Of a stretch of DNA of 60,000 nucleotides, positions 1,945 through 45,970 are shown piece after piece. The notes under the pieces are model-generated. The model ran no database searches. It saw nothing but the letters and a program-made list of their open reading frames with translations, and was not told the origin of the DNA. Positions within the stretch are counted from its first letter, which is position 1; the number at the start of each line of letters is the position of its first letter. The stretch is from positions 94,366,001-94,426,000 of the forward strand of contig CM059432.1 of assembly GCA_030390025.1 (NCBI GenBank), in the 5' to 3' direction. Origin of the DNA: Squalus acanthias. Taxonomy: Eukaryota. Position numbers and translations under genes: made by a program.

Positions 1945-2400
1945 ATTATTCTAGATTAGTCGCAGCGGATTGGAAGGTAGTAAATGTAACCTTGCTAGTC
2001 AAGAAAGGAGGGAGAGAAAAAACAGGGAACTACAGGCCAGTTAGCCTGACATCAGTCGTCGGGAAAATGCTGGAATCCATTACTAAGGAAGTGGTAACAG
2101 GGCACTTAGAAAATCATATGATTAGGCACAGTCAACATGGTTTCATGAAAGGGAAATCGTGTTTGACAAATTTATTAGAGTTTTTTGAGGATGTAACCAA
2201 TAGAGTAGATAATGGGGAACCAGTGGATGTAGTATATTTGGATTTCCAAAAGGCATTCGATAAGGTGCCACATAAATGGTTGTTACGCAAGATAAGGGCT
2301 CATGGGGTTGGGGAATGATATATTAGCATGGACAGAATGTATCCAAGTTTGCTGACGACACAAAGCTAGGTGGGAAAGTAAGCTGTGAGGATGACACAAA
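1945..2400 (+). mobile_element. CR1 LINE ORF2 (RT) fragment, 5' part; continues at 8512
   Basis: ORF 1992-2318 has [14 protein letters not shown] and [14 protein letters not shown]; a KFADD motif lies near 2345. Cut by Harbinger A1. Confidence 0.93.
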
Positions 2401-2760
2401 GGGGGAGACATTCGGTATCTCCCCGTTTGGGGCGCAATTATTGGCCAGGCGCAAAGTTTAGCGCCTGGTGCTAATTATCGCCTCCGACTGCAAACTTGGC
2501 TTCTATCGCCACGGAGGTGATTGAAGCGCTAAATCAGGCGCTACACACCTCTCTTAAGGCGCTAACGCCGAGGAGCGAGGCACTAACTCAGAGCGCTGGC
2601 GAAGCTCAGGTGATGTCAGTTAGCAATGGAACACAGACACACTGGCGCTGGTCAGTTCTTAAAGGGGAGGGTCGATCTTGCTCTCCAACCACACCCTGCT
2701 CATTGCAGCCTTGAATCTCGGCCTGGACAGACCTGAACTTGAATTCTTCTGCAAAGAAGA

Positions 2761-4562
2761 ATGGAGAGGCCCAGGGAACGAGCTCAGCGCTTCAGCGACC
2801 GGGCCTTGGTGGCTCTGGTTGGCGTAGTGGAGCGCCGAAGATCAGTACTCTACCCACAGAGTGGCAGGAGGCCATTGCCATGCGATTATAGAAGAGTCTG
2901 GAGGGAGGTGGCTCAGCACGTCTCCTCCAGGAGCCTGGTGCCCAGGACCCACACCCAATGTCGGAACAAGTTCAATGACCTCACTCGGGTGGTCAGGGTG
3001 CGTGGCTGCTTTTCAATACCTCTGCATCCCTCCATCTCAACTTCACTCTGTGCCCAGAGGGTTTAAAAACCCCAAATTCCCAACACTCATCCAAGACCTA
3101 TGGCCATCTCACAAAACACACAAGCACATTCCACACCTTGCGTACATTATTCAACTATGGGAGGCACATCAGGCAAGCACATGGCTGCATACATTAAGGG
3201 CTATTCAACTATGGGAGGCACATCAGGCAAGCACATGGCTGCATATTTACTCAGACGCCGACCTTTTTCTTGCAGGCCAAGCTATCTCACAACAGGCGGC
3301 AGCAGCAACGGACGGGTGGAGGGCCGGCTGAGCTGCAGACCCTCAGCGATTTGGAAGCGCTCGTGCACAGGATCGTTGCCAGCCAGGTGATAGGTGCCGT
3401 GGCCGCTGGAGCGGTCGACCCCCCTTGGGGACACCAATGGTAAGTTCATCAGCTTTCTCTCCTCTCTCATTCCACTTTCCCCTCACAACACCAGCCTTTT
3501 ACACTTTCAATCCAACTTACTAAATGTCTCCAGTCCTTGCTCCCTTACTGCCCCCCTGTCCTGACGCTAAAGCCACTCTTGTACCTCCCTGCTTTCAGAT
3601 AGTGAACCACCAGCTGACCAGCCTGTCCCTCAACCTACCAGTGGGAGCGACGCCCAGGCGAGGAGGAAGAGGAAGCCGGAGCCTCAGTGCCTGTGTCTCC
3701 CGAGGGAGCCAATGCCCACACTGGGACCACGCCTTCCCTGGAGGGGAGCAGGGGGGAAGGGTCTGATGAGGGTGAAGCTCCAGGTCTCAGTGGGCTGCAG
3801 CAACGCCATGAGGGTAGGGAAGCTCGGGGGCCAGCTGCCCGGAGGGAGAGTTGGCCAGCGAGTCCTGCTGCACTGGACGCAGAGGAGGAGCAGCTCATCG
3901 CGGAAATGAATACCCAGGCATTGAACATGCACACTCAACTCATGGGTGCAGTGGGAAGGGTGCCCGAAAGCATTGATGGACTGGCAAGGAGTGTGGAGCA
4001 CTCCGCTGCAGCACAGGCCGACGCAACGTAATGGCTTAGTGCTGCAATTCAGTCACTGGCTGCTGCGATCCGATCTCAGACTGCTCTCATGCAGTCTCAG
4101 ATTGATGTAACGCAAGCACTGGCTGCTGCCATCGTCGCTGGTTCGGCCACACTGCCCTGGGGCTCTCACGGCGCCGCAGCAGGCCAGCAATCTGTGCTCG
4201 AGCAGATTGCTCCGGATGCTGAGGTGCTGCCCCGTGGGAGTGGCAGTGTATCGGTCGAGCAGGATGACAGCATTCCTGCTCCCACCACTGTCACTTCCCC
4301 ATTGCACTTGCCACTGCCTACAACACAGCCAGCCCAGACTGCTGCCGCCCATGCAGAGTTGGTGCAGTCTGCAGCCGGGGCCTCCAGGCCCAGAGCTGGT
4401 CGAGGGCGTCCTTCAAGGGCATCTGTAGTCTCAGGATCTGACATTCAGCAGCCTTCCACCAGCCTTGCTGCAGCCACTGGGGCCCCATTATGGAGGAGCA
4501 GTAGGGTGGGAAGGGGGGAATTGCGCAAGGGAAGGAGATCGCCCTTGAAGGGCCAACCGTAG
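2761..4562 (+). pseudogene. Harbinger A1 Myb/SANT-like (trihelix) gene, 3 exons (2761-2997, 3276-3439, 3599-4562)
   Basis: Motif RFSDRAL...VWREVAQHVSSR...RTHTQCRNKFNDL; GT/AG introns shared with A3. Extra base in exon 2 and a TAA at 4029. Confidence 0.85.
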
Positions 4563-4674
4563 GAGGTCTAAATAAATGGTGGGATTATTTGTAGTAAAGG
4601 TCGAGGTTCGTCTGATAACATTTGTTTATTGTTTTGGTGTTTATCTTCAGCTTGTGAGAACCAGTTTTGTTAAT

Positions 4675-6689
4675 TAAGAACATAAGAAATAGGAGCAGGA
4701 GTAGGCCATTCGGCCCTTCAAGCCTGCTCCGCCATTCAATGAGATCATGGCTGATCTTCTGCCTCAACTCCATTCACCAGCCCTATCACCATATTCCTTG
4801 ATGCCTTTACTAGTCAGAAATCTATTGACTTCTGTTTTGAATATACCCAATGACTGAACCTCCACAGCCCTCTGGGGTAGAGAATTCCAAAGATTCACCA
4901 CCCTCTGTGTGAAGAAATTTCTTCTCATCTCAGTCCTGAATGCCCTACCCTTTATCTTGAGACTGTGGCCCCTGGTTCTAGACTCCCCAGCTAAGGGAAA
5001 CATTCTCCCAGCATCCATCCTATCAAGTCCTGTAATAATTTTGTATGCTTCAATGAGATCCCCTCTCATTCTTCTGAATTCAAGAGAATACAGGCCTAGT
5101 TTACTCAATCTCTTCTCATACGACAGTCCCGCCATCCCAGGAATCAATCTCGTGAACCTTCGTTGCACTCCCTCTATGGCAAGTATATCCTTCCTTAGGT
5201 AAGGAGACCAAAATTGTAAACAATACTCCAGGTGTGGTCTCACCAAGGCCCTATATAATTGGAGTAAGACTTCTTTACTCCTGTACTCAAATCCTCTTGT
5301 AATGAAGGCCAGCATACCATTTGCCTTCCTAATGGCTTGCTGCACCTGCACATTCACTTTCAGTGACTCATGTACAAGGACACCCAGGTCCCTTTGAGCA
5401 TCTGCATTCCCCAATCTTTCACCATTTAGTAAATACTCTGCCTTTCTGTTTTTTCTACCAAAGTGGATAACTTCACATTTATCCACATTATATTCCATCT
5501 GCCATGTTCACGCCCACTCACTGAGCCTGTCGAGATCCCCTTGAAGCCTCTTCACATCCTCTTCGCAACTGACACTGCCACCTAGCTTTGTATCATCAGC
5601 AAATTTGGAAATGTTACATTTAGTCCCCTCATCCAAATCATTGATATAGATTGTGAATAGCTGGGGCCCGAGCACCGATCCTTGCGGTACCCCACTAATC
5701 ACAGCCTGCCATCCTGAAAAAGACCTGTTTATCCCTACTCTTTGTTTTCTGTCTGTTAACCAATTCTCAATCCATGCTAGTATATTACTCCCAATTCTAT
5801 GTGCCCTAATTTTGTTCACCAACCTCTTGTGTGGGACCTTATCGAAGGCCTTCTGAAAATCCAGATTCACCACAACTACCCGTTCCCCTTTGTCTACTCC
5901 ACTAGTTACATCCTCAAAGAACTCCAATAGGTTTGTCAAACAGGATTTCCCTTTCATAAATCCATGTTGCCTCTGCCCAATCTTACTATTAGTTTCTAAG
6001 TGCCCAGTTATTGCATCCTTTATAATAGATTCCAGCATTTTCCCAACTACTGATGTGAGGCTAACAGGTCTGTAGTTCCCTGTTTTCTCTCTCCCTCCTT
6101 TCTTAAATAGCGGGGTTACATTTGCTATCCTCCAATCTACAGGAACCGTTCCAGAATCTATAGAATTTTGGAAGATGACAACCAATGCGTCCACTATTCC
6201 AATGGCCACCTCTTTCAAAACCCTAGGATGTAGGTCATCCAGTCCTTGAGATTTGTCGACTTTTAGTCCCATTAATTTTGCTAGTACTGTTTTTTTACTA
6301 ATAATAATTTCTTTAAGTTCCTCATTCTCGTTATACCCTTGGTTTTCTCGTATTCCTGGAAGGTTTTTTGTGTTTTCCTCCGTGAGGACAGAAACAAAGT
6401 ATTTATTTAATTTCTCTGCCATTTCCTCATTCCCCATTATAAATTCTCCCGTCTCTGACTGTAAAGGACCTACATTTACCTTTGCCAGTCTTTTCCTTTT
6501 CACATACCTATAGAAGCTTTTACAATCCGTTTTTATATTTTTCGCTAGTTTGTGCTCATATTCCATTTCCCCTTTCTTTATCAATTTCTTGTTCCCCCTT
6601 TGCTGATTTCTAAAAAGATCCCAATCCTCAGGCTGACCGCTTTTTCTGGCAACTTTATAAGCTTCCTCCTTTGACTTAATACTAGCTTT
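4675..6689 (-). mobile_element. 5'-truncated CR1 LINE (RT, ORFs 5508-6584 and 4764-5498) nested in A1
   Basis: RT motifs [10 protein letters not shown] and KFADD, one frameshift, TTCTTATGTTCTT tail. Absent at the homologous position of A2 and A3. Confidence 0.95.
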
Positions 6690-6883
6690 AATGATTTGTT
6701 GTGTTTGTTTCTATCAGTTTGACCTGAATAAATGACGCAGTTTGTTGAATAAAAAAGTTGTTATATTCAAAATGTACATGTTTGGCCTTTGCAATCATTG
6801 CAATCTTTGGCCGGCTATAGGGGTTGTGGGTTGCTTTCCATGATGTTGTTCTCCATGCCAGAAGCCATTTCCTCAGTAGGGGC

Positions 6884-8033
6884 CTAGAAGCAGCTTGTTA
6901 TCAGCCGTTGACGGACGGCCCCTGCAGTGGCAACATTGTGGGCCTCCCTCCCGCCTTGGTGCTGCTGCTGATCATCCTCCTCATCCTCTTCCTCCTCCTC
7001 TGGTGGTGCACCAATCCCTGGTGGCATTGCCTGGGTCCTGAGGATTGCCAGGCTATGAAGCATGCAGCATACAACTATGAAGAGGGAGACTCGCTCAGGA
7101 GAGTACTGCAGGGCTCCTCCTGAGTGGTCCAGACAGCAGAACCGTTGCTTTAGCATGCCGATCGTCTGCTCAACGATGTTCCTGGTGGCGATATGGCTCA
7201 TTATACCGCAGCTCGGCAGGGGTGTTGGGGTTACGGAGCAGTGTCATCAGCCAGGTGCAGAGTGGATAACCCTTGTCCCCGAGGAGCCAACCACTTGGCT
7301 GATGCAGTGTCTGGAAAAGCTCTGGCACACCAGTCTGGCGCAGGATAAAAGCATCGTGGCTGCTGCCAGGATAGCGGGCATTGACGGCGAGTATCAGCTG
7401 TCTGTGGTCACAGACCAACTTGACATTTAAGGAGTGGTGGCCTTTGCGGTTTCAGAAAACCTCTGCATTTTCATGCGGTGCCCGCAATGCCACATGCGTG
7501 CAGTCAATGGTGCCCTGCAGCATGGGGAAGCCCGCTATCCTAGCAAAGCCACATGCGCGTTCATGCTGTTTGGCCCGGGTCATGGGGAAAGAGATGTACT
7601 GGCGTCTCCTTTTATAGAGGGCATTTGTCACCTCCCGGATACAGCAATGGACAGCGAACTGGGAGATATTGGCGATGTCCCCAGTAGCTGCTTGAAAGGA
7701 GTCAGTGGCAGAAAAATTCAGAGCCACCTGTCACCTTCACTGCCACCGACAGAGAGACGTCCTGGTCCTCAATTGAGGCTGCAGATCTGGTTGCAGCAGG
7801 TGGCAGAGCTCGGTGACCACCTCCTTGCTGTAGCACAGCCTGCACAAACACTGCTCCTCAGACAAATAAATGTAGGAGAATTGTTCCCGGAATACCCTGG
7901 GAGGGTAAGGTCTCCTGTGCAGAGGCCTGTTGGCCCTCCTCCCTATGGCCATGTTTGCCTCTCTCTCTCTGCGTCTCTGATGCCTCCGATTCTGCAGGTG
8001 CAGGGCGACGCCCCGATTCAGTGCAGCCCCCAT
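6884..8033 (-). pseudogene. Harbinger A1 transposase (HARBI1-like DDE), frameshifted
   Basis: Fragments [29 protein letters not shown] and IVEQTIGMLKQRF spread over several frames. Confidence 0.92.
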
Positions 8034-8511
8034 AGTCTCTTCTAAATCGATGCAAGGATAATCAAATCAAAAAGAACCTGCAAAGTGCTGCTCAGTACCG
8101 AAAACTCCTTCACACAGCGTTGAATCTCTCCAGAAGTCTCTCTCTCTCTCTCAGGATCTCTCTCTCTCTCTCTCTCAGAATGCGTGGTGCAAAAATGTCT
8201 CTGACAAAAAAAGGCAGGAAGAAGCCATTTTTAAATAGCGCTCCCCCAGCCCCTTCCTGACTGCAAAACGTTCCCCTCTACCTGTCGTTGCTAGCAGCAG
8301 GCGGTAAGGCAGGGGGCGCCACTCAATATCCGGTCCGGGGCGCTGCCGGGACGTTGCACGCTCGACTGACGTCACGATCTGCAGGCGCAGGAGATTGTGG
8401 CAGTAGTGTTTAGCGCCGCTGCAAAAACTCTGGTCAATTTCGCGAGCGGCGCAAACATCGCCGCGCCTTAGGCGCAAATGGGAGGCGCTAATCAACCGAA
8501 TTTTTCACCAC

Positions 8512-9378: not shown

Positions 9379-11924
9379 TTATTGCTGTTTCCCCATTGCC
9401 CCAGGAAACGGTAGTAAGTGCGGCAGATGCCAAGAAAATCTGCTGGTGACCTGGGCCAATGTTCCCTTTAAGATGCGCGGCCGCACAGCACTTTGCAGCT
9501 CCCGCGCAGCCAACTCACTGGCTTTTAAATCGGCAAAACTGCGCATGTGCGGTATTTTGAATGGGCCACGCAGCCCCTTAAAGGGGTCGCGCACCCCAAA
9601 GAAATTTGAAGGGAACATTGACCTGGGCCCAGCAACCATGCCCCCATTTGCATGCGGCCAGGGTGGAAAGAGCGGCCATTCCAGCAGGGCGGGAAATCCC
9701 AGGCAGGGTGGTGACCAATATTCCCTGTAATTATTTTTTGCTCTGCCTGGCCCCTTCAAAATACAATGCATGTGTGGTTTTTACATTGAAAAGCTGACAA
9801 GCCGACTGCGCGGGTTCCCTGGAGTGCTGCGTGGTAGCGCAGCTTAAAGTGAACAATGGTGGTGACCCTGCAGTAGGCTTCAACACTAACATTTTCTAGC
9901 CCTTCTCTCCATCATTCATTCCTGTCTTCTACAATCTTGCTTTTAAAACAGAAAATTTGTGTCACCTACTGCATCCTGCCTTCTCTCCAACTCTTTTCAA
10001 GCATGGTGACATCTCTCACTATGAGTCTTGCCCTTCACTTAAGTTTTTCAATGAAGAATTCTAATGTATCTCAGATTCAGGTTCTATTCATCACTCCTGA
10101 GACACTCTTAACAGATTTCACTGTGCTCCTTGCCATCATCTGCTGTCAATATACGTTTATTAAAATGGAATGAACAGGAAAAAAAAGGAGTCTCTCAAAT
10201 TTTGGATTAAAATAAATTGTTTGGGAAACCAATTCATTTAATTACTGAGCTGCATTGCAGAGAGTACAGTATCACAATGTAAGGCCTGAACCTGACAGAT
10301 TCAAATAACATTTATTCACCTGTAAGGATGATTGCACTCAAGTATCAAAGCAATTTTTCAAAAGGTTTTCTGTGTCTGGCACAGACAGAACAGCAACCTG
10401 TGGAGAAGACACATCGAGTCATTCTCCTCGACTTTGATCAGGCCTTTCTGATCATTTGCTCAAGGTCCTGAGAAGTTGCTGTACTCATGTTGAAGCCTCA
10501 ATGCAGAGATAAAAACACAGCAAGCTAGTGGGTCATACATTTTTATTGCTGGAGTCTGCTGAAGCCTGTTTAAATAACAATATCAAATAGTGTGAAGATC
10601 TTTACTCAGCCATAATATCTCATGGTGGAGATCAAACCCCCATTACGTCAAATGTTTCTGTAACCATCCCCACTTATCATACCATAGGAAAGAAATTAAG
10701 ACAAGGTTAATAGTTCACATGCTGTCTGAGTCTCTGCTAAAATGCTTATATCACTACAAGGTTAAACAATGTCAGAATTGGCAATCATATGTAATACTCC
10801 AAAGTAAAGATCAAACATTTATTATAATAAACATCTTCAAAACTGCCTTCACTCGATTCTCTTTGTTTAATCCTATGATTTAAGCAGACATTTCACTGGA
10901 CTCCAGCAACAAAACATATGACCCCGCTGAAATTCTGGTCTAAGGTCTTACTCGAACGCTTATCCTGTCATTCTCTCCAAGATACTAACTGACTTGGTGT
11001 GCATTTCCGAACATTTTATTTTTTATTTATGATTCTCTTAAGTTGTGTTTTTTCTTTTTATCTCTAAAATATATGACCCAGTAGCTTGGTGCAATTTTCC
11101 ACATTTGGGCTTCCCAACATGAGTGACTTTTCAGTTACTTTTAGCTACAGCCACCTTGAACTAAACAATCAGGAATGAATTTCTCCACTGCTGGAGCTGT
11201 TGCTGCTAATGCCACTAAGGCAAATAATTAATTGCCAACAGCACAACTCGGATGCGGCCTGAACTCTTTGCTAGACAATAATTTAATTCCCTGCACCACT
11301 CAGATTGGCAGCTAAAAGAAAAGCCAATTTAGTGTGGGGACTATAAGACCTTTTAAACAACTTTAATAATCGTCATAAAAGAGGCTGTGACCATTTCAAC
11401 AGCTGTGGAGAACAAAAGAACAAGAGAAATTATAGGGCTAATTTTCTGAATGTGTACTCCCAGCACGGATCCTCGTTCACCAGGAGCGCATATTGGGAAT
11501 TTGCAGGGTCACTCCCCGTGGTTTTCCATGGTTTTGTGGGTGGAAAATATAGGCACATGTTGACCCTCAGAGAAAGCAGGATGGTTAGCCTCTTGCAAGC
11601 ACTGAAGATCAGTGCCATCCCACAGGAACATGGGCCGCAAATTTAATTCTGGAGGCGAGATGGGGGCGGGTCAGCAGCTTTCGGACCCGCTCCCGGATGC
11701 CACCAGCCCGCAGTTCCGATTTTTGCTTGATTGGCCTCGTTAAGGCCGACGTGCGGGTCCCTCCAGGCAATTGCTTGGAGCATGTCAGTTTCTCGCGTCT
11801 GATGACACGTTGTTTGAGTAAAAATTTAAAGGGGCCATGTTCCCTTTGCAAAAAATGTAGATGGGATGGCTTGGTGCTGTATTATCTAGAAAGGGGAGTT
11901 GACAGCAGCTGGTCTGAACACAAT

Positions 11925-12110
11925 GGGCGCGATCTTGCCAGCCCTGGGGAGGCGGGCATGGAGGCGGGACTGCCGGGAAGACTGGGCGGGCTTAACAAGG
12001 TCAATCAAGGGAAAATAGCGTGGGTTGGCCAGAAGTTGATGGAGGCAGGACTAAAACCTGACAAGTGGGAGTCCCGCCTCCAAAAGCTCCCCATTGGCAA
12101 AATCCAGTCC
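11925..12110. mobile_element. 186-bp Harbinger MITE nested in B3
   Basis: TIRs GGGCGCGATCTTGCCA / TGGCAAAATCCAGTCC and TSD AAT. Right part closely matches 48612-48741. Confidence 0.8.
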
Positions 12111-12280
12111 AATGTATTGAATGAAATTGCTGGTCCTATTATTCCAGAAACACATTTATGATTTTTTAATCTATCAATTTAGTATGTGACTAAGAAATGA
12201 GAAATATGCCAGATGTGTTCCAATCATTGGCTTAGTAAAATTAATGTTTTTTTCTCTTAAAGGTGCTGGCTGCTGCAGGA

Positions 12281-12520
12281 ATGGCAGCCCCAAAAACTAA
12301 GGCTGCACCCAGGTTCAATGAGGGCTCCCTCCATGCTCTTATGGAGGGAGTTAGAGGACGTCAGGGGGTCCTCTTCCCTGGAAACGGATGGAGGAGTCCT
12401 CCTCAGCAAACCAAGGCAGCTTGGCTGCAAATTGCTGAGGAGGTGAGTTCGAGGTCTGTGTGCAGACGCACATGGGTTCAGTGTCGAAAAAGGTTTAATG
12501 ATCTGCTGAGATCACCTTAA
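12281..12520 (+). pseudogene. B3 Myb/SANT exon 1 remnant
   Basis: MAAPKTKAAPRFNEGSL...AWLQIAEEVSSR...RTWVQCRKRFNDL; downstream exons are deleted. Confidence 0.85.
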
Positions 12521-12706
12521 GTGTGGCCGCTGTGTTCTGGGAAATGGAAGTTCAAGAGTGAGGGCTCAGGGCAAATGCCATGTAGACTGTTGGTGGTGAC
12601 ACTGAGCACAAATCACTGTTTAGTAGACAGATGATGCCTGGGGTTTTGAGAATATCGGACTTATATTCATCTCCATGTGCCAGCCACCTGTGGTTGAAGC
12701 GTAAGC

Positions 12707-13913
12707 TTACACGAATCTGGCATGGATGAGTGCATCCCTTGCCTGACGGCCAGCAATGTGGTCGTCTGCTGCTGGATTGGGCACATCCGGCCCCGCAAGG
12801 CGTTGCTCCCCGTCCTCTTCCTCATCCTTTGAGGAGGCTGTGCACTGAGCCACTTGTTCGTCCGGCAGCACTAAGCCACGCTGCTGTGCGATGTTGTGCA
12901 GGGCACAGCAGACCACGACGATTCTGGACATCCTGGCTGGTGCATACTGCAAGGCTCCTCTAGATCTGTCTAGGCATCGGAAGCGCATTTTGAGCAAGCC
13001 GATGGTTTGCTCGATGATGCTTCTGGTGGATATGTGGCTCAAATTGTACCACTCCTCAGCATCGTTTGATGGCCTCCTCATTGGGGTCATAAGGCACTTT
13101 TTCAGAGGATAGCCCTTGTTGCCAAGAAGCCATCCGGAAAGTTGGTTTGGCAGATGGAAGAGCTGAGGCACAGTAGACTGGCGCAGGATGAAGGAGTCAT
13201 GGCAACTGCCAGGGTACTTTGCGCAAACATGCATGATGATCTTCCTGTGGTTACACACCAGCTGGACGTTCAGGGAGTGAATCCCTTGCGGTTGACAAAT
13301 ACAGCTGGGTTGTGATAGGGGACCCTAATGGCTACATGTGTGTAGTCAATGACGCCCTGCACCATTGGCAAGCCTGTCATATTGGCAAAGCCAACTGTGC
13401 GCGCCGTCACACTTGGGCCATCCGTGGAGAAGTGGATGTAATTGTGCGCCTTTGCAAAGAGGGCATCGGTGACCTGCGTGATGCAAGTGTGTGCGGCCGA
13501 CTGGGAGATGCTGCTGATGATCCCTGGAAGGAGCCTGAAGCAAAGAAGTTGAGTGCGGTGGTGACTTTGACAGCAACTGGCAAGGAGTGTCCACCCGCTC
13601 CTCTGGGCTCCAGGTGTTGGTGCAGCATTGCGCAGATGTCAGTGACTACGTCTCTCGAAAGTCACAGCCTCCTTTGGCACTGATGCTCAGTCATGCTGAG
13701 AAAGCTGATCCTCTGCCTGTAAACCCTATGTTGGGGGTATCTCCGGCGGCGAGGTGCAGCCCTGCGCTGAGGCCCACTGCCCTGTGCATCGTCAGGTGGG
13801 TGAGGAGGAGGTTGGCGCTCCTGGTGCTGGTGTTGTGGCTGGTTGTGGTGCTGCTGCGGCTGTTCTTCCTCCGAATCTGACGACGAGGATGAGAGGATAT
13901 AAATATTTCCCAT
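12707..13913 (-). pseudogene. B3 Harbinger transposase, frameshifted
   Basis: [31 protein letters not shown] and [16 protein letters not shown] in different frames; catalytic GDKGY reads GNKGY. Confidence 0.9.
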
Positions 13914-14819
13914 CCCATAGCTATAGATTTCACTTGAGGCAAGAAGCTTGCAAGCGCACAGTCGAAGTGGCCTGAAATTATTCCAATCAGGTCACACTGC
14001 AGATGGCTGTCAGCTTGAACAGTCATGGTCAGTAGATTTGCAAAATCTTATCCCAAACCTCCAACAATAAGGTTGTTGCATTTGAATTTCAGCCATGTTT
14101 CAGGGGCACTTTTAAAGTGCTGCACCAATTACTACAAATCATCTCCTCCAGCAACTCATCTCCTTGCAGCTGGCCTGTTTCTGACAAGATGGGAAACAGG
14201 AGCCAGAAGCACGGAAATGGGAAACCACTATCAAAATAGGATTAGCAAGGCAGTTAACAGGCTGTTAACTGCCTTAACTACCTGTCCCACCGGTTCCAGT
14301 CGGGTCAGTTTGGGAGCGGCTGAACCGACACTCACGAAATTCGCGTGGGGGCGGGATGGAGGCGGGTTGACAGTCTGAAGCCATTTTTTCCGATTTTCGC
14401 TGCCGACCCGCCTCCAAACCCGCCTCCTCAGGGCTATTAAAATCGAGTCCATGGGGTCTTCGATTGGTGGAAAACAGCTGGCAGCTATCTAGTGAGGAAC
14501 CAAAGCTTTGCTACAAATTGCAGGGCTCCATTATTGACCCCATGACATTTTAATAGTGACAGCTGGAGCTCAGCTAAAGAATCTGGTAATGATCAGCCGA
14601 TGCTACTGTCTCATGCACATCAACCACGTTGTTCAGTCACTCTTCATCATGCTCATCTATTGAAAGCTGCTGTATATCAGTCTCCCGCTTGTTCACACCT
14701 CTCTTGATTATGGAGCAAGCAGCACACCATCACTATTTTGGACGCTTTCTTTGTGGCAAATTGCAAGGTGCTCCCTCAATTACTCCAAAACACTGCTCAC
14801 AACACGATTTTGGCATGAG

Positions 14820-15741: not shown

Positions 15742-15833
15742 GATAGTTAGAAATCCCCAGAAGGCATCCATCCAGCCTGCTATCTTCTTGGAACAGGTCT
15801 TGCATGTTGGAATCTCACAAAATAAAGAGTCAT

Positions 15834-16481: not shown

Positions 16482-16793
16482 CATAGCACCTCCTAGCAGA
16501 CCTGGCCTTAACGTGAAAGATGCTCAAGTTGACATCACACACTGTTGTACACTGTCTGAATAATATCCTTTTCTATTTGTAGGGCATGACTTGGCTTAAT
16601 GGAGCCCAAATGGGACCTGTGTACAATCAGTAATGACCTGAACCCTTAAAAAGCTGCCAATATCAAAGAAGCCTCTGTCCAGTGCACAAGTGTGCATAAT
16701 GGGGTGCATGCCTCAGGACCTCGGTAACATTTTGGATGCTGATAAATGGCTCAACGTTGTCAAATCCCCATGGATTCTAAAGGATAAAATATT

Positions 16794-32323: not shown

Positions 32324-32596
32324 GGGGGCGATTTTCCCATTGGAGGCGGGTTTCAGTTTAGGGTGGGTTCCAAACCCGCCTCCACTGTCAGGTGGGAAAA
32401 ATTTGCGATTTTCCCCTAATTAGCCAGTTACTTTCAGAGGTGTGGGTTCCCCTGGGCCAATTAGTCTTTTGGGACTGAAACTCGCCCCTGCTGACGTCAC
32501 TTATCCAGCTTCATTTAGGGCTGTTTGCTGCCTTGGCTCATTCCACTGGTTTTTGGTCGATGGTGCACCACCTCCAAACTTTTATCTCATTGAAGA

Positions 32597-34605: not shown

Positions 34606-34873
34606 AGCACCATTCGTCACAGGGATAGGCACTTGGGTGACTGTTTCTGTTTATTGATGAAATGCCATTCCTGTTTGAATGTATTAAAATGAGGTGATGG
34701 CAAACTGTTGGCGTGATGGCATCTGTTATTTCGGCTTAGGCAGCTCCACATTGCGGGCTCCGCGACACTTGCGTGGTCAGGTTGGTGGTCAGAGTGAAAG
34801 GAGGCCAGAGAGTCATGTCCATTGTCTATCATGTGTTAAGAAGGAGCCAAGCACATGTGCTAACATGGGCAAC

Positions 34874-36087
34874 CTATGCAAATCTGGCCAGGATGAGTAC
34901 ATCCCTTGCATCATGGGCAGCCATGTGCTCGCGTGCTGCCGCTGCTGCTGGTAGATACGCCACTGCTCAGTCCTCCTCCTCCTCCTCCTCATCTGAGGAG
35001 GCTATGAACTGAGCCACTTGCTCATCAGGAAGCTGCAAGCCACAACGCTGTGCCATGTTGTGCAGTGCACAGCAGACCACGACCATTCTGGAGGCCCTGG
35101 CTGCTGAATACTCCATCTGATCTGACAAGGCATCGGAATCGCATCTTCAGCAAGCCAATGGTTTGCTCGATGATGGACCTGGTCGAAATGCGGCTGGCGT
35201 TGTAGCGCTCCTCAGCCTCGTTAGCTGACCTGCTGATCGGCATCATTAGCCACTTCTTCAGGGGGTAGCCCTCGTCACCAAGGAGCCATCCGTTAAGTTG
35301 GTTTGGCGGATTGAAGAGTGGAGGAACACTAGAGTTCCGCAGGATGAACGAATCATGGCAACTACCACAGAACTTGGCACAAACATGCAAAATCTCCTTC
35401 TTGTGGTTACACACCAGCTGTACGTTGAGGGAGTGGAAGCCCTTGCAGTTGACAAAGATAGCTGGGTTGTGATGGGGTGCCCTAAGGGCCACATGTGTGC
35501 AGTCTATGACGCCCTGCACCATTGGCAAGCCTGCCATATTTGCAAAGCCAACTGAACGCGCGGTTAAACTTGCTTGATCCCTTGAGAAGTGGATGTAATG
35601 GTGCGCCTTTGCGAAAAGGGCATCGGTAACCTGCGTGATGCAACTGTGGGCGGCCGACTGGGAGATTCCGCAGATGTCTGCTGATGATCCCTGGAAGGAG
35701 CCTGAGGTAAAAAAGTTGAGTGCGGTGGTGACTTTGACAGCCACTGGTAAGGGGTGTCCACCCGCTCCTCTGGGCTCCAGGTGTTGGTGCAGCAGTCCGC
35801 AGATGTCTCCGACAACCTCTCGCGAAAGTCTCAGCCTCCTTTGGCACTGCTGCTCACTCATGTTGAGGTAGCTCATCCTCTGTCTATAAACCCTGAGAGG
35901 GGGGGTATCTCCTGCGGCGACGTGCTTCCATGCGCTGGTGCCTTCTGCCCTGTGCAGCATCAGGTGGGTGAGCAGGAGGTTGGCGCTCCTGCTGCTGTTG
36001 CTGCTGAGCTGCCTGGTTCTGCTGCTGCCGTGGCTGCTCCTCATCCGAATCTGAGGTCCATGATGAAAGGAAATAAATGGTTCCCAT
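34874..36087 (-). pseudogene. B1 Harbinger transposase (frameshifts near both ends)
   Basis: Core [27 protein letters not shown] and [13 protein letters not shown] lies in ORF 35025-36119; the true N-terminus MGTIYF is in another frame. Confidence 0.92.
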
Positions 36088-36603
36088 GCTGCTGGCAGAT
36101 AGCTCCATTGGGGAAGCACTCAGTCCAAGCGGGGAGAGGGTCTTCCAAGGAGGTCCCACAGTTGAGAGATAGAAGCTGCAGCACCTCCGACTTCGGTAGG
36201 CCTGCTAAAAGTGCTGAAAGACCTTTGGAACAAATGTTCTGCCACCTGCAACTGCTCCCTGATGAAAGCTCCGTTTTAATGGTGGAGCTGCAGCTGTGAG
36301 GAGGCCACCCACTTGTCAACCTGTCAGGATCAGCTGGCGTGGTTTAGGAGGGTCGTGCAACACGCACAAAATGTGGCAAAATAACAAAGGCCTTTCATAA
36401 TAGGATTATAGAGGCCCTTAACGACTATTTAAGTGTCTTAACTACCTCTCCCGACTGATGGAGGCGGGACCGAATCGCACCCATCAAACCTGCCTCCGGC
36501 AAAATTGCGCGGAGGCGGGTTCCGAACCCGCGCTCACTTTTTGTGATTTTCCCAACTATCCCGCCTCCAAACCCGCCTCTTCGGGGCTGGGGAAATCGCG
36601 CCC

Positions 36604-37134: not shown

Positions 37135-37491
37135 GGGGTAGAAATTAGGTCGCGCCCCATTTGGGGCGCAAATATCGTCCGCGCGCAAATATTAGCGCCT
37201 GGCGCTAATTATCGGCACTGACAGGAAACTTCACTTTTACCGCCCCGGGAGGTGAGTGGAGCGCTAAATTAGGCGCTGCACACCTCTCTTAAGGCGCAAA
37301 GGCCTAGGAGTGAGGCGCTAACTCAGCGCACGAGCGCAGCGCAGCTGCTGCCAGTTAGCGCGGGAACACAGACACACTGACGCCGGACACTTCTTAAAGC
37401 GGGGGGGGCCACTTGCTCCCCAGCCACACCCTGCTCATTGCAGCCTTGAATCTCAGCCTGGAGAGACCTGTAATCCATTTTGCTGCCAAGA

Positions 37492-39563
37492 ATGGAGAGG
37501 GTGAGAGAACGCGCTCATCGCTTCACCGAGCGGGCCTTGGATGCTCTGGTTGACGCAGTGGAGCGCAGACGATGCATGCTGTTCCCAGAGAGTGGCAGGA
37601 GGCCTTTGCCACGCGAGTTCAGAAGAGTGTGGAGGGAGGTGGCTCAGAGCGTCTCCTCCAGGAGCATGGTGCCCAGGACCCATGTCCAGTGCCGCAAGAA
37701 GTTCAACGACCTCACTCGGGTCGTCAGGGTGAGTGGCTTTTTCTCAATACCTCTCCATCCCTCCATCTCAACCTCACTCTATGGCCAGAGGGTCTTAAAA
37801 CCCCAATGCACAACACTCATCCAACACCTATGGCCCTTTCATCAAACACACACACACATTCCACACTTTGCATACAGTAAGGGCTATTCACCTATGGGAG
37901 GCACATCAGGCAAGACCATGGCTGCATATTGTAAGGGCTATTCACCTATGGGAGGCACATCAGGCAAGACCATGGCTGCATATTGTAAGGGCTATTCACC
38001 TATGGGAGGCACATCAGGCAAGACCATGGCTGCATATTGTAAGGGCTATTCACCTATGGGAGGCACATCAGGCAAGACCATGGCTGCATATTGTAAGGGC
38101 TATTCACCTATGGGAGGCACATCAGGCAAGACCATGGCTGTATATTGACTCAGATGCTGTCCTTTTTCTTGCAGGCTAAGCTGGCTCATAATCGGAGACA
38201 GCAGCAACGGACGGGTGGAGGGCGGCTTCAGCTGCAACCCCTCAGCGATCTGGAGGAGCGCGTCCACAGGATTGTGGCAAGCCGGGTGATCGGTCCCGTC
38301 GCCACTGGAGACGCCGACCCCGTTGTGGACAGCAATGGTAAGGTCATCACCTTTTTGTCCTCTGTCCTTCCACTTGTCCCTCACAATACCAGCCTTTGAC
38401 ACTTTCAATCCAACTTGCTAACTCGCTGCACTTATTCCTCCCTTACTGCCACCCTGTCCTCACGCTAAAGCCACTCTTGTACCTCCCTGCTTTCAGATGG
38501 TGATTCACCAGCTGAGGAGATGGTCCCTGAAGCTGCCACTGGGAGTGATGCTGCAGCTGAGGAGGAAGAGGAAGCCGGAGCATCAGTGCCACCCTCTCCC
38601 GAGGAAGCCCATGGCCACACTGGGAACACGCCTTCCCCGGAGGGGAGCAGGGGGGAAGGGGCTGATGATGGTGAAGTTCCAGGACCCAGCGGGCTGCAGC
38701 AACGCCATGGGGGGGGGAGGGAAGAACGGGGGAGCAGGGGGGAAGGGGCTGATGATGGTGAAGTTCCAGGACCCAGCGGGCTGCAGCAACGCCATGGGGG
38801 GGGGAGGGAAGAACGGGAGCCTTCTCCCCAGAGGGAGAGTATGCCAGACACTCCTAATGCAATGGACGCAGAGGAGGAGCGGATGATTGCAGAAATGAAC
38901 AGCCAGGCGGTGGTCATGCACACTGAGCTCATGGGTGCAGTGGGAAGGGTGCCCGAATGCATTGAGGCACTGGCAAGGAGTGTGGAGCACTTCGCTGTAG
39001 CACAGGCGGATGCCACACTAAAGCTTACTGCTGCAATTCAGTCACTGGCTGCCAGGAACCCATCTGAGCCTGCTCTCATGCAGACTCAGATTGAGGCCAC
39101 GCGAGCACTGACTGCTGCCATCCTCGATGGTTCGTGCACATGTCCCCGGGGCTGTCACCGCGCCGCAGCAGGCCAGCAATCTGTTCTCAGGCAAATTGCT
39201 CCGGATGCTGAAGTGCTGCCCCGTGGGAGTGCCAGTGTGTCGGGCGAGCAGGGAGTTGCTGTCCTCTCTCACGATGACAGCATTCCTGCTGCCAACACTG
39301 TCACTTCTCCACTACACTTGCCACCGCCTGTAGGACAGACTGCTGCCGCCCATGCAGAGTTGGTGCAGTCTGCAGCCGGGCCCTCCAGGCCCAGAAGTGG
39401 TCGAGGCCGGCCTTCAGGGGCATCTGCAGTGTCAGGGTCTGACAAGCAGCAGCCTTCCACCAGCCTTGCTGCAGCCACTGAGGTCCCATTACGGAGGAGC
39501 AGTAGGGTTAGAAGGGGGGAAGTGCGCAAGGGAAGGAGATCACCCTCGAAGGGCAAAAAGTAG
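37492..39563 (+). CDS. Harbinger Myb/SANT-trihelix DNA-binding protein, 488 aa; exons 37492-37728, 38175-38337, 38497-39563
   Basis: GT-AG introns (phase 0, phase 1) join 237+163+1067 nt into an uninterrupted 1467-nt frame; Myb motif VWREVAQSVSSR...QCRKKFNDL. Confidence 0.85.
37878..38147 (+). repeat. 54-bp minisatellite x5 in intron 1
   Basis: Unit TAAGGGCTATTCACCTATGGGAGGCACATCAGGCAAGACCATGGCTGCATATTG; about 2 units in A1 and A2. Confidence 0.95.
38643..38817 (+). repeat. 87-bp in-frame tandem duplication in exon 3
   Basis: GSRGEGADDGEVPGPSGLQQRHGGGREER occurs twice. Confidence 0.95.
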
Positions 39564-39857
39564 GATGTGTGCCAAAATGCTGGTCATTTTTTTATTAAAG
39601 GCCGAGGTTCATGGCCCAACTTTTGTTTAGTGTTTTGGACATTATCTCCAGGTTGTGAGAACCAGTTATGTTATTGACTGTTTTTTGGTGTTTATTTCTA
39701 TGAGTTTCTCATGAGGAATTGACACACACAGAGTTTGTACAATAAATAAGTTTCTGTATTCAAAATATACATGGCTGGTGGTTGGAATTATTGGTGCCTT
39801 GGCCGGCTTAGGGGTTGCGTGCTGGGTTGATTCGTGTTTGTAGCACTGGCAGGGGTC

Positions 39858-41018
39858 CTAGAAGCGGCTTGCTATTAGTCGTTGACGGACGGCCCTTGCA
39901 GTTTGACCATTGTGGGCCGCCCTCCTGCCTTGGTGCTGCTGCTGATCATCGTCCTCGGCCTGTTCCTCCTCTTCCTCCTCCTCCTCTTGTGGTGCTGCAA
40001 GGCCTGGTGGCATTGGCTGCGTCCTGAGGATTGCCATGTTGTGCAACATGCAGCACACCACTACGAATTTGGAAACTTGCTCAGGCGAGTACTGCAGGGC
40101 TCCTCCGGAATGGTCCAGACAGCGGAATCGTTGTTTGAGCACGCCGATTGTGCGCTCAATAATGTTCCTCGTTGCTTGTTGGCTTTCCTGGTACCGCAGC
40201 TCAGCAGGGGTGTTTGGCGCACGGAGCGGTGTCATCAGCCAGGTGCTCAATGCGTACCCCTTGTCCCCCAGAAGCCAACCAACTGGCTGATGCGGTGCCT
40301 CGAAAATTTCTGCCACAGTACTCTGGCGCAGGATGAAAGCATCGTGGCAGCTGCCCGGATAGTGGGCATTGACAGCGAGAATCACCTGTCTGTGGTCACA
40401 GACCAACTGCACATTCAAGGAATGGAACCCCTTTCTGTTCCGGAACTCCTCTGCATTCTCTCGCGGAGCACGCAAAGCCACATGCGTGCAGTCAATGGCG
40501 CCCTGCACCATGGGGAAGCCCGCTACCCTCGCAAAGCCCATAGCACGGTCATGCTGCTTGTCTGGGGTCATAGGGAAGGAGATGAAGTCTCGTCTCCTTG
40601 TGAAGAGGGCATTGGTGACCTGCCGAATGCAGCGATGCACCGCAAACTGGGAGATATTGGCGAGGTCCCCAACAGCAGCTTGGAATGAGCCAGTGGCGTA
40701 GAAGTTCAAGGCCACTGTGACCTTCACTGCCACCGACAGAGACGTCCTGGACCTCAGCTGAGGCTGCAGATCTGGCTGCAGCAGGTGGCAGAGCTCAGTG
40801 ACCACCTCCTTGCTGAATCGCAGCCTTCGCAAACACAGCTCCTCGGACATGTGGATGTAGGAGAGCTGTTCACGATATACCCTGGGAGGGTAAGCTCTCC
40901 TGTACATGCGCCTGATGGGCCTCCTCCGTCTGGCCATCATTGCCATTCTCTGTCTGCGTCTCACTCTGCTCCGATTGAGCTGGAGCAGGACGACGCCCCC
41001 AATCATTGCAGCCCCCAT
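39858..41018 (-). CDS. Harbinger transposase (HARBI1-like DDE), 386 aa, intact
   Basis: Single ORF with an HTH-like region and the D-D-E motifs AIDCTH, LGDKGY and IIERTIG. Confidence 0.93.
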   Translation of the reverse strand: MGAAMIGGVVLLQLNRSRVRRRQRMAMMARRRRPIRRMYRRAYPPRVYREQLSYIHMSEELCLRRLRFSKEVVTELCHLLQPDLQPQLRSRTSLSVAVKVTVALNFYATGSFQAAVGDLANISQFAVHRCIRQVTNALFTRRRDFISFPMTPDKQHDRAMGFARVAGFPMVQGAIDCTHVALRAPRENAEEFRNRKGFHSLNVQLVCDHRQVILAVNAHYPGSCHDAFILRQSTVAEIFEAPHQPVGWLLGDKGYALSTWLMTPLRAPNTPAELRYQESQQATRNIIERTIGVLKQRFRCLDHSGGALQYSPEQVSKFVVVCCMLHNMAILRTQPMPPGLAAPQEEEEEEEEQAEDDDQQQHQGRRAAHNGQTARAVRQRLIASRF

Positions 41019-41531
41019 CTTCTCTTTGCCAGAAAAGTAATGAGGTACAGCAACGAAAGTAGCAGCAAAGTTAGGATGAACTAGGCAAAACTACCTCACA
41101 AAGCGTTGAGTCAATGTAGAAGTCTCTCTCTCTCTCTCTCCGAATCTCTCTCTCTCTCTCAGAACGAGTGGTGCATAAATGTCGACCACAGAAAAAGACA
41201 GGAAGAGGCCCCCTTTAAATAGCGCCCCCCCCAGCCCCAGACCGATTGATAACGTTCCAGTCTTCCGGTCGTTGGAAGCGCCAGGCGGTAAGGCAGGGGG
41301 CGCCACTCAATTTCCGCTCCGGGGCGCCCCAAGGGCGTTGCACCACAGAATGACGTCACAATCTGCGCGCGCAGGTGGTCGCAGCGGTAAGTTTTAGCGC
41401 CGCCGCACAATCTCAAGTTAAGTTCTCGAGCGGCGCAAACAGCGCTGCGCCCAGGCGTTAGCGCCTTAACGCCCCATTAGCGCCCATTTAAGGCGCTAAC
41501 GGGAGGCGCAACCAACTGAATTTTTACCCCC

Positions 41532-43627
41532 TAGAATCATAGAATCATAGAAGATAGGAGCAGGAGTAGGCCACTTGGCCCCTCTAGCCTGCTCCGCCAT
41601 TCAATGCGATCATGGCTGATCATCCAAATTCAGTACCCTGTCCCTGCTTTCTCCCCATATCCCTTGATCCCTTTAGCCTTAAGAAATATATCCAACTCCT
41701 TCTTGAATCTATTTAATGAATTGGCCTCTACTGCCTTCTGTGGCAGAGAATTCCACAGGTTCACCACTCTCTGGGTGAAGAAATTCCTCCTCATTTCTGT
41801 CCTAAATGGCTTACCCCTTATCCTTAGACTGTGACCCCTGGTTCTGGACTCCCCGACCATCGGGAACATCCTTCCTGCATCTAGTTTGTCCTGTCCTGTC
41901 AGAATTTTATAAGTTTCAATGAGATCCCCTCTCATTCTTCTAAACTCCAGCGAGTATAAGCCCAATCGACCCAATCTCTCCTCATACGTCATTCCTGCCA
42001 TCCCAGGTATCAGCCTTGTGAATCTTCGCTGAACTCCTTCCATGGCAAGAACATCCTTCCTCAGATAAGGAGACCAAAACTGCACACAATACTCAAGGTG
42101 TGGTCTCACCAAGGCCCTGTACAACTGCAGCAAGACATCGTTGTTCCTGTACTCAAACCCTCTCGCTATGAAGGCCAACATACCATTTGCCTTCTTAACC
42201 GCCTGCTGCACCTGCATGCTTACCTTCAGCGACTGGTGCACAAGGACACCCAGGTCTCATTGTACTTCCCCTTCTCCCAATCTATTGCCATTCAGATAAT
42301 AGTCTGCCTTTCTGTTTTTGACACCAAAGTGGATAACCTCACATTTATCCACATTATATTGCATCTGCCACGCTTCTGCCCAATCACCCAACCTGTCCAA
42401 ATCATACTGGAGTTTCTCGGCATCCTCCTCGCAACACACACGCCCACCCAGTTTTGTGTCGTCTGCAAACTTGGAGATATTACATCTAGTTCCCTTGTCT
42501 AGATCATTAATATATATTGTGAATAGCTGGGGTCCAAGGACCGATCCCTGCGGTACCCCACTAGTCACTGCCTGCCACTCGGAAAAAGACCCGTTTATTC
42601 CAACTCTTTGCTTTCTGTCTGCCAACCAGTTCTCTATCCAAGTCAATACCTTGCCCCCAATCCCATGTGCCTTAACTTTACACGCTAATCTCTTATGCGG
42701 GACCTTATGAAAAGCCTTTTGGAAGTCCAAATACACCACATCCACTGGTTCTCCCTTATCTATTTTACCAGTTACTGTACATCCTCAAAAAATTCCAGTA
42801 GATTAGTCAAGCATGATTTACCTTTTGTAAATCCATGTTGACTTTGTCCGATCCTGTCACTGTTTTCCAAGTGCTCAGCTATTACATCTTTTATAATGGA
42901 CTCTAGCATTTTCCCCACTACTGATGTCAGGCTTATCGGTCTGTAATTCCCTGTTTTCTCTCTACCACCCTTTTTGAATAGTGGGGTAACATTAACTACC
43001 CTTCAATCCATGGGTACTGTTCCAGATTCCATCGAATGTTGGAAGATGATCAGCAATGCATCTACTATTTCTAGGGCCACTTCCTTAAGTACCCTAGGAT
43101 GTAGATTATCAGGCCCTGGGGATTTATCGGCCTTCAATCCTTTCAATTTCCCTAACACCATTTCCCTACAAATACTGATTTCTTTCAGTTCCTCCCTTTC
43201 ATTAGACCCTATGTTCCCCAACATCTCTGGGAGGTTATTTGTGTCCTCCTTTGTGAAGACAGAACCAAAATATGTATTTAATTGGTCTGACATTTCTTTG
43301 TTCCCCATTATAAGTTCCCCTGATTCTGACTGCAAGGGACCTATGCTTGATTTCACTAATCTTTTTCTCTTCACATATCGATAAAAGCTTTTACAGTCAG
43401 TTTTTATGTTCCCTGCAAGCTTACTCTCGTATTCTATTTTCCCCTTCTTAATTAATCCCTTTGTCCTCCTTTGTTGAATCTTAAACTGCTCCCAATCCTC
43501 AGGGTTACTGCTTTTTCTGGCCAATTTATATGCCCTCTCCTTGGATCTTATGCTATCCCTAATTTCCCTTGTTAGCCATGGTTGAGTCACCCTTTTTGTT
43601 TTATTCTTATGCCAAACTGGGATGAAC
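41532..43627 (-). mobile_element. CR1-b, 5'-truncated, nested in CR1-a
   Basis: (ATTCTATG)n tail; ORF2 pieces 41630-42241, 42257-42745 and 43003 onward, with [10 protein letters not shown] and KFADD. Confidence 0.95.
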
Positions 43628-43795
43628 AAATCTCTCTGAACACCAACATTTGAAAGTTTCTCACCATTTAAAAAATATTCTGCTTTTCTATTCTTCCTAC
43701 CTAAGTGAATAACCTCACATTTCCCTACATTATACTCCATCTGCCGCCTTACTGCCCACTCACTTAGTCTATCTATATCCCTTTGCAGACTCTTT
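43628..43795 (-). mobile_element. CR1-a 5'-most surviving part
   Basis: LQRDIDRLSEWA...KCEVIH...QRDL; rejoins 37134 as GACACCTAAATCTCTCTG. Confidence 0.88.
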
Positions 43796-45970
43796 AGGCT
43801 CAATTTTGCCATTGGTGGCGAGTTGGGTGCTGGTGAGGTGGTCGGCGGGTCCAGCTGCATTTTAAGGGCTCCAAGCAGCCTTTGTTCATTTTCTCTCTCT
43901 GTACTTCCTGAGTGACTACTGTGCTAAGTGTTTGCTACTCCTGAAATGTCTAGCTCAAGGCCCAAGGTCTCACCTCGCTTCGATGATGACTGCCTCCATG
44001 CTCTGGTGGAGGGAGCCAGAGCTCAAAAGGAGGTGCTTTTTCCTTCCTCTGGGAGGAAAAAACCTCCCCAGCAGACTAAAGCTGTGTGGCTGCAACTGGC
44101 ACAGGAGGTAAGCTCCAGATTGATGTGCAGCAGAACCTGGCTGCAGTGCCGAAAGAGGTTCAATGACCTTGTCCGCACAGGAAAAGTGAGTATACCATCA
44201 ACTTTACCCTCATTCTGCTCCCCATCTCCTCTCAGCACCAGCACTCTGCATTGTCAACCTACTCCTACACATCCCACTTTACCCTTACATTCCTTGCACC
44301 CTTAACCATCTCTCTCTCTCTGTACACAATCACTTCACTATTCGACTATGCTGCCCTCACATTCCCTATCACTGTTATGCAATGACAACAACTAACAACA
44401 CACAGGGAGGGCCCTTGGTATTGGGACCTCACTCCATCTTTGTGTCCTTCTATATATCTATGCTGTGGATTATCTACACTCACTCCATCATTTTCACTCA
44501 AACTCCACTTGTGTCCTTCATTGCAGGAAAAGAGAGCCCACAATAAGAGGGAAAGGGCGAAGACAGGAGGAGGGCCACCCTCAATAGCCCATCTCACCAG
44601 CGCTGAGGAGGAGGCCCTAGAGATCGTTGAAGCTGAGGAGGATCTGGAAGTGCGTGACGGACAGACAGGCGCATCAGAGCAAGCTGGTGACAGAATAGTT
44701 TTGTATCTTTCTGATTTACATTGCATGAGTGACTGATATGGCTTCTGATGCTCATACAGATTGACTTATGATCATCTGCACAATTCCATGTGCATGCTAC
44801 GTTAATATCACATGTCTAACTCAAGCCTTTACTCCCCCACAGGACCATCGACAGCCCCCTCCCCACTGTCCAGGAGGAAGAAGCGGAGCCAGAAAACTCC
44901 TCAGAGGAACCTGCAACCTCTGAGGGTGCAGCATCAGCAGAATTAAGCGCACCCAGCACCAGCGCAGAGACTCACACCTCGGTGGGACCCTCGGGACATA
45001 GAGTAGTGTTGTCACCTGGTGTATCACAGCTCACAAGTGAGCATCAGCAGATGGTGGAGACAGGGACAGCAGTGGACAGTCCTCGTCGGAGGCCGCAGGG
45101 CGCTTCCAGCTCTGCTCAGCTGCATGTGGACCCTGTGCCTCCGGGTCCATATGAAAGAGAGTGGTGCTGGAACTCCAGGAACAGCTGCAGGAGTCTCTGG
45201 CAGGTTTTGTCTCCAGGGTCACTGCAAGTGTGGAGAGGATGGAGGAGTCCAACTCTAACATGAGCAGTGCCTTTGTGGAGGCAATGGCACATGAACGCAC
45301 CACCATGGAAAGGATGGCAACCTCCGTGGAAAGGGTGGCTACCTCTGTGGAAAGGATGGCTACGGTAGAGGAGAGGATGGCTACGACCATCGAGGAAATA
45401 AGTCACCAGAGTCAGGAAAACATGGTGAATGTTCAGAATAGATTGGCATCTCTGGAGGAGCGATGGACAGCTATTGAGCAGAGAAACCAGAGCTTCATGG
45501 AAGTCCTTTTGAGTAGGACTGCCACTGCAGATACGGGTCCTCATGGCCCCCTGATGTGCAGCAAGGTGCTGTGCAGCCACTTGCTAGCACTGAAGTGGGG
45601 CTGACCCATGAGAGGGATGTTGGTGGCAGGCAACAAGGAAGTGGGGGCTGCTCTCCAAGCGCTCACACTCCCATGCCACTGAGTAGCCCTCGGTTAGAGT
45701 CCCACCAGAGTCCTCACCCAACTGAAATGGGCGGCTCAGCCCCTGCACAGCCGCAGGAGGAGCAGACTGTTGCCGAGCCCTCAGAGGCTCGCAAACCCAG
45801 AGGACGCCCGCCAAAGGTGTCAAAGCAGGAGCAGCATGAAAGTGAGCAAGGTGCCTCAACATCTGCTGAAGCCACAGAGGAAGCACCACGTAGAAGCTCG
45901 TGTAAGAGGAAGATAAAGCACAATTAGTCACAAGGGTAGTCACTTGGGTGTTCTGTTGTGTTAAATTTTT
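43796..45970 (+). mobile_element. Harbinger family B, copy B2 (left half: TIR plus Myb pseudogene 43946-45927)
   Basis: Left end AGGCTCAATTTTGCCATTGG resembles B1. Exons 43946-44185, 44527-44686 and 44843-45927 carry frameshifts; no transposase half. Confidence 0.88.

Follow-up and report, generated by a model that had tools for sequence, protein, structure and literature searches.

Symmetric flanking arms and an A/T-rich core at PIF/Harbinger insertion sites in a 60,000-nucleotide stretch of Squalus acanthias DNA

What do PIF/Harbinger transposons recognize in the DNA that they enter? The question is raised by a stretch of 60,000 nucleotides (nt) from Squalus acanthias (contig CM059432.1, positions 94,366,001 to 94,426,000; here, the window), which by self-comparison and reading is a mosaic of CR1 long interspersed nuclear elements (LINEs) and of elements with terminal inverted repeats (TIRs), nested in one another. 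The TIR elements represent several PIF/Harbinger families, namely two coding families, A and B, and several miniature inverted-repeat transposable element (MITE) families with the same type of TIR. An earlier note, made from the letters alone, had proposed that they prefer semi-palindromic sites whose flanks are read while the 3-bp core, duplicated upon insertion as the target site duplication (TSD), is free to vary. Here, we describe a symmetric consensus in the flanks of these insertions and a core that is rich in A and T. All statistics are drawn from this one window.

All eight paired sites and three half-sites described in the earlier note are present, and its proposal that the flanks carry sequence information holds. 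Its 19 half-sites contain 4.32 bits versus 0.60±0.23 in random sets, none of 5000 of which reached the observed value. Counting from the element's end, position -7 is A in 15 of the 19 and position -4 is C in 16; three control intervals further from the element are flat (p=0.07, 0.42, and 0.41). Selection was limited by use of the nine elements with both ends, a set that keeps the misfit element A2 (family A, 19838..23811, internally deleted, TSD AGA, site AAGAT[AGA]CTTTT with the core in brackets) and adds a MITE absent from the earlier note (24428..25095, TSD ATT, site AACAC[ATT]AAGTG, left end paired by eye). In these 18 half-sites, the five bases next to the TSD on its outer side hold 3.88 bits (random sets, 0.64±0.24; 0 of 20,000 as high), and from the outermost position inward they read R in 16/18, A in 14/18, C in 9/18, A in 12/18, and C in 14/18. 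Exact RAYAC is found in only seven of the 18. Under a null of local composition, 68 of 90 positions matched RAYAC where 32.4 were expected, and the maximum in 50,000 draws was 49.

Both coding families have C at -4 (family A, 4/6; family B, 6/6). Position -5 is T at coding B-family ends (4/6) and A at MITE ends (9/10 half-sites). The motif also carries over from one kind of host sequence to another: a matrix built from the 10 half-sites outside CR1 (five elements) ranked the CR1-hosted sites 6/1312, 9/1857, 56/864, and 4/864 in their emptied hosts, placing all four in the top 0.5–6.5%, and training in the reverse direction gave a Fisher p of 5e-7. Leave-one-out upper tails ranged from 0.0001 to 0.065.

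The rival explanation that survives best, improbable as we judge it, is an artefact of selection, in which well-fitting ends were noticed first and a consensus fitted to them afterwards, the true preference being much weaker or limited to an A/T core. Several observations weigh against a strong preference, and the first of them comes from ends held out of the counts above. TIR matrices gave 41 (B matrix) and 58 (A matrix) matches with a score of 9 or more, and the held-out set comprised eight ends: six B matches scoring 12 or more that the earlier note had not named, plus the ends at 24428 and 59641, found by eye. Ends near 10931, 11433, 19453, 47646, 54510, 54737, and 55170 were excluded because their registers are ambiguous. 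The eight held-out ends are clearly weaker, matching RAYAC at 22/40 positions versus 14.1 (p=0.005), with C at -4 in only 3/8 (p=0.29); they match the zebrafish-derived AASAC at 15/40 (p=0.19). One of them, at 43796, has the same CR1 flank as A1 and its sequence is therefore not independent. Three half-sites of the earlier note may have been chosen for their fit, and the registers of A1, A2, and an A-type MITE absent from that note (15834..16482, TSD CAT/ATA, ATG/ATA, or CAT/CAT) are uncertain by 1 nt; this MITE stands outside the main counts, and adding it in three registers shifts the p value for information between 0.004 and 0.079. A2 is the poorest fit, at the upper tail of 0.065, and one empty CR1 paralog scores above the used site. 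Families were pooled in the arm and core counts, the core counts come from only 13 insertion events in one window, and the evidence consists of existing insertions, no de novo insertion having been observed. Searches by sequence and by model found no solved PIF/Harbinger transposase structure showing target contacts.

Selection alone accounts poorly for three results. The paired-only set was defined by TIR and TSD and includes A2, and it still holds its 3.88 bits; the CR1-hosted and non-CR1 halves are independent and predict each other; and the local-composition null never attains the observed score. The held-out ends are mostly unpaired and are probably older or less certain, which would blur their flanks.

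A preference for particular bases in the arms is the reading that we carry forward, and the symmetric site consensus claimed for it is borne out. Symmetry of this kind might instead reflect a hairpin or cruciform into which the palindrome of each single site would fold. The MITE at 28874..29609, which lies in a CR1, seems made for such a mechanism: the palindromic arms reported for its site are real and perfect over 8 bp, and they come from the CR1 sequence. (The AAA given for its left TSD does not stand; the copy at 28871-28873 reads AAC, and the two copies are AAC and AAA.) The identity between a site's own arms, 24/45 positions, also exceeds that at random sites (11.2, p=2.5e-4). It is, however, not above that of shuffled arms (21.9, p=0.27), as a symmetric consensus predicts, and at the sites of A3 and of the MITE at 16794..17579 (TSD ATT, site AAAAT[ATT]GTGCC, TIR match 15/16) the arms agree at only 1/5 positions, yet the matrix scores are good. 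Palindromy here is a property of the consensus and not of hairpins, and target choice by DNA secondary structure is very unlikely.

The core departs from what had been proposed. Rather than varying freely, it is A or T at 35/39 bases (p=7e-7), and its middle base is A or T in 12/13 events. AWT accounts for 5/13 events and AAA/TTT for 4/13, together 9/13. The AWT cores fit ANT (5/13 events, p=0.0013) and all lie at MITE-type ends, where they make up 5/6 events. Part of the apparent variation stems from the pooling of families, since B ends and MITE ends differ, in small numbers. The earlier note was right that the TSDs are not TAA/TTA: TWA occurs in 0/13 events, as do CWG (0/13) and TNA (0/13).

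Recognition of a base motif also bears on the insertions into CR1, of which there are five. The elements A1 (family A, 2401..8511, in the CR1 reverse transcriptase region) and 43796 (family B, in opposite orientation) occupy one and the same base in two copies of CR1, a coincidence with a chance of 0.005-0.012 for five uniform insertions. Where CR1 copies lack the motif at the A1 position, no insertion is present (3/3), and the used CR1 copy outscores its empty paralog in 11/12 comparisons at four sites. In the interval 32143-43795, a segment of about 870 bp of a single CR1 copy received B1, A3, the 43796 element, and a second CR1. Choice of the motif explains these hot spots without homing to CR1, because the same motif is learned from sites outside CR1. 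Homing to CR1, whether through a tether or because insertions in repeats are retained, with the motif merely CR1 sequence, would fit five CR1 insertions with two at one base and the phasing of A3 with a CR1 octamer tail, but it is the least credible of the rivals given that 5/9 paired elements lie outside CR1, that a matrix from those alone picks the CR1 sites, that four different CR1 positions were used, and that all three motif-less copies at the A1 position are empty.

We consider it very probable that a symmetric transpososome reads two arms of 5 to 6 bp on either side of an A/T-rich core that is cut with a 3-bp stagger. The elements are cut-and-paste PIF/Harbinger transposons of a cartilaginous fish, members of the PHIS superfamily, together with their MITEs. 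On this model, a two-fold symmetric transpososome would read some 13-15 bp of the target, each half favoring a 5-bp arm, approximately R-A-Y/C-W-C, most strongly the A at -7 and the C at -4. Cuts 3 bp apart would then be made around a core that is A/T-rich but only loosely specified (in most cases AWT or AAA/TTT), and the 3-bp TSD would arise on repair. The preference would be graded, such that one good arm could offset a poor one, and abundant repeats that spell the motif by chance, such as CR1, would become hot spots. Element-encoded proteins probably set the preference, since rice mPing maintains its insertion preference in yeast (PMC2836001; here and below, statements from cited papers refer to the parts of those papers available to us). 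A dimer may read the arms, the reading may be done by the transposase and not by the Myb-like protein, and the A/T core may be chosen for bending.

The anatomy of the sites supports a 3-bp TSD. When one-TSD reconstructions of the A1, B1, and 28874 sites are aligned with intact CR1 copies from the window, no gap is needed, which establishes the length of the duplication. A1 has TSD AAA (2398-2400 and 8512-8514) and site GACAC[AAA]GAGCC, and a nested CR1 lies inside it at about 4675-6690. B1 (family B, 32324..36603) lies in a CR1 3' region with TSD AAA and site TACTC[AAA]GACTC, and its transposase frame is on the minus strand at 35025-36119. B3 (family B, 11633..14450) has TSD ATG (11630-11632 and 14451-14453), site GGAAC[ATG]GGGTC, and a broken transposase on the minus strand; a MITE inside it (11925..12110) has TSD AAT and site AACAC[AAT]GTATT. 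For A1 and A2, the register is certain only to within one base: in each, the two TIRs differ in length by 1 nt, and in A1 both junctions read CACAAA. With the best TSD, the extra base falls to the right TIR in three A-type elements (2401/8511, 19838/23811, and 15835/16482), and the TIRs of A3 are even; the longer right TIR is possibly a subfamily trait or a register error.

Four further sites are known from one end, all on the plus strand. GACAC[ATT] precedes a TIR from 17748 (17740..17775), for which the end at 25095 is a possible partner. AACTC[TAC] precedes a TIR from 25835 in a truncated coding element (25827..26349), and AATAC[ATT] precedes a TIR from 32117 (32109..32142) that is interrupted by a CR1 at about 32143. 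The B-family element with its left end at 43796 (43788..45981) has the half-site GACTC[TTT] and has lost its right end.

The site of A3 (family A, 37135..41530, TSD CTA at 37132-37134 and 41531-41533) depends on the order of two insertions. Of the proposed site GACAC[CTA]GAATC, the left arm and core stand; the GAATC of the right arm belongs to the octamer tail of the second CR1 (41535..43629, minus strand), which adjoins the right TSD, the host CR1 continuing from 43630. If the second CR1 came earlier than A3, the proposed site holds; if it came later, the site becomes GACAC[CTA]GATCT, a version that can be aligned with 4/4 paralogs over 80 bp with no gap. The two readings score alike (6.10 and 6.43), and our counts use GATCT, the poorer RAYAC match. 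The sequence only leans toward a younger A3, in that the second CR1 has two stops and one frameshift in about 640 codons and the A3 transposase has none in 410. The right TSD of A3 is in phase with the octamer tail (41531-41555), exactly one 8-bp unit from its best-scoring register. Letters similar to those at this junction also follow the end at 48741.

Contigs of four public sequencing runs were compared with positions 8300-17800, a comparison dominated by LINEs (at least 21,031 loose ends and at least 4,850 joints). In contigs of three of the four runs, a joint skips the MITE at 11925 (from 11923 to 12116) with the exact length of a one-TSD site; it represents paralogous copies with other letters, AACAC[AAA]TAATT. 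One contig of run X5 bridges the left junction of B3, and a contig match in run X22 begins at 11633. Contigs of a related organism (run X19) overlap both B3 junctions, reaching 30 and 29 letters inside B3, short of the 31 letters required, and are not counted as a shared insertion. No flank consensus at TIR ends appeared among the matches listed for the four runs against 8300-17800. Pattern scans for element ends gave 0 and 0 matches in viral contigs and 0 and 1 in metagenome contigs; we attribute the single match to chance, as it has neither a TIR nor likeness to the elements.

Which transposons are these? Transposases of A3, B1, and B3 contain DDE_Tnp_4 (E=5.9e-38, 9.4e-29, and 3.1e-30), and a Myb/SANT domain, Myb_DNA-bind_5, is encoded at 37474-37728 and 26086-26349, the former in the Myb exon of A3, which starts at 37474 on the plus strand, and the latter in the truncated element at 25835. 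The A3 transposase frame is open over 410 codons from stop to stop (39858..41090, minus strand), making A3 a candidate recent copy. Its closest homologs come from sharks and rays, bear the name putative nuclease HARBI1, and reach 65-66% identity; between families A and B, transposase identity is 52% over 287 residues. A predicted model of the A3 transposase (predicted local distance difference test score, 88.6) matches only generic DDE enzymes, piggyBac (Z=9.9, root mean square deviation 5.0, 232 residues aligned) and Tn5 (Z=8.7), and such matches of a predicted model are uninformative about target contacts. Within the Myb-like gene region of A3 lies a 54-bp tandem repeat of about five copies (37869-38147), with two copies in A1 and A2.

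The elements have the features of PHIS membership, namely DDE_Tnp_4, a second gene with Myb/SANT, and short TIRs that begin with G next to a 3-bp TSD, and within the window they also show the target preference beyond the TSD. The TWA TSD that defines the narrow PIF/Harbinger group (Han et al. 2015) is found in 0/13 events, as is the CWG of NuwaI (0/13). As in NuwaII, C and G flank the TSD (C at -4 in 14/18 paired and 3/8 held-out ends), and the TNA core of that group is absent (0/13). The second open reading frame (ORF) of Pangu has no known domain, and Myb/SANT is present in the coding elements of the window. These transposons belong to PHIS, but their TSDs do not fit the narrow PIF/Harbinger group, NuwaI, or NuwaII.

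An extended target preference is described as common to every characterized member of the superfamily, spanning 9 bp in plant elements and 15 bp in those of vertebrates (PMC2836001). The published groups include NuwaI with CWG, NuwaII with C|TNA|G, SENKUSHA1 with C|NNN|G, Harbinger-3_Aaae with NNN, and Pangu with ANT (PMC4482050). Extended preference, non-TWA TSDs, and C|NNN|G targets had thus already been published (PMC2836001, PMC4482050), and the surprise implied by the earlier note was too high. Barley Harbingers favor a short TAA motif (PMC5738225), and mPing excision is influenced by the TSD bases, the middle base least (PMC4561436). A survey detected no Harbinger in elephant shark, other cartilaginous fish lying outside its scope (PMC9179366), and we found no paper on shark Harbinger target sites in a search that covered few subscription papers and no Repbase.

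The resemblance that the earlier note drew to zebrafish Harbinger3_DR is sound. That element, listed as NuwaI-2_DRer (PMC4482050; Han et al. 2015), integrates into the palindromic 15-bp AAACACCWGGTCTTT, with half-sites AACAC/AAGAC (PMC3016246). Like the elements in the window, it has a DDE_Tnp_4 transposase, a Myb_DNA-bind_5 protein, a short TIR, and a 3-bp non-TWA TSD (PMC4482050), and its arms agree with the sites described here in having A at -7, A at -5, and C at -4 (PMC3016246). It differs in its CWG core, found in 0/13 events here, and at -8, which in the window is G as often as A. NuwaII elements, including SENKUSHA1 (NuwaII_TRub), likewise have a fixed C and G directly outside the TSD, with TIRs that mostly begin GG, two ORFs, and, for SENKUSHA1, a core listed as free (PMC4482050); the window differs in having no TNA (0/13), information out to -8, and an A/T-rich rather than a free core. 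Maize PIF and rice mPing/Ping/Pong share the extended preference, with the TSD plus 3 bp on each side (PMC2836001), but theirs is 9 bp with a TWA core, whereas the motif in the window spans about 13-15 bp and TWA is absent. At MITE-type ends, the AWT core is compatible with the ANT TSD of Pangu and bacterial IS5; Pangu, unlike the coding elements here with their Myb/SANT, has no known motif in its second ORF (PMC4482050). The landing preference is a known property of the superfamily, and its particular form here is a modest variant. In the parts of these sources available, the one feature that seems not to have been reported is the combination of Harbinger3_DR-like arms with an AWT/AAA core.

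This combination hints that arm read-out and core choice could be separable, the arm code (A at -7, C at -4) being conserved from zebrafish NuwaI to shark families whose mutual identity is only 52%, the core having moved from CWG to AWT/AAA, and -5 being family specific; we hold this to be possible but doubtful. If it were true, a classification of PHIS by TSD would put a shark clade in the wrong place, and the open A3 transposase frame would be a natural start for mapping residues that read roughly 10 bp of target. The preferred reading, in which symmetric arms are read around an A/T-rich core, would explain the pile-up of Harbinger elements at single bases of CR1 and other repeats without a homing device, and would mean that identical insertion sites can be independent events. 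Annotation filters requiring TAA/TTA or CWG would miss these families, which add a cartilaginous-fish data point to the target-site diversity of PHIS.

A loose scan of the window for TIR pairs returned mostly noise. The degraded TIR element at 59641-60000 has its left end at 59641, where the TSD side reads AAT and the flank, CTTTT, misfits the motif. Another degraded palindromic TIR element, of about 230 bp, lies at 47413-47641, with an ambiguous TSD. A small element at 9457-9620 has 15-bp TIRs (14/15) beginning CA and an exact 8-bp TSD (9449-9456 and 9621-9628); it is not a Harbinger, and from the TSD length we take it to be hAT-like. Three copies of another repeat family, 75-85% alike, lie at 18563-19052, 30148-30798, and 46135-46822. 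Short CAGTT-rich repeats and AATAAA at 1-1900 look by eye like a long terminal repeat.

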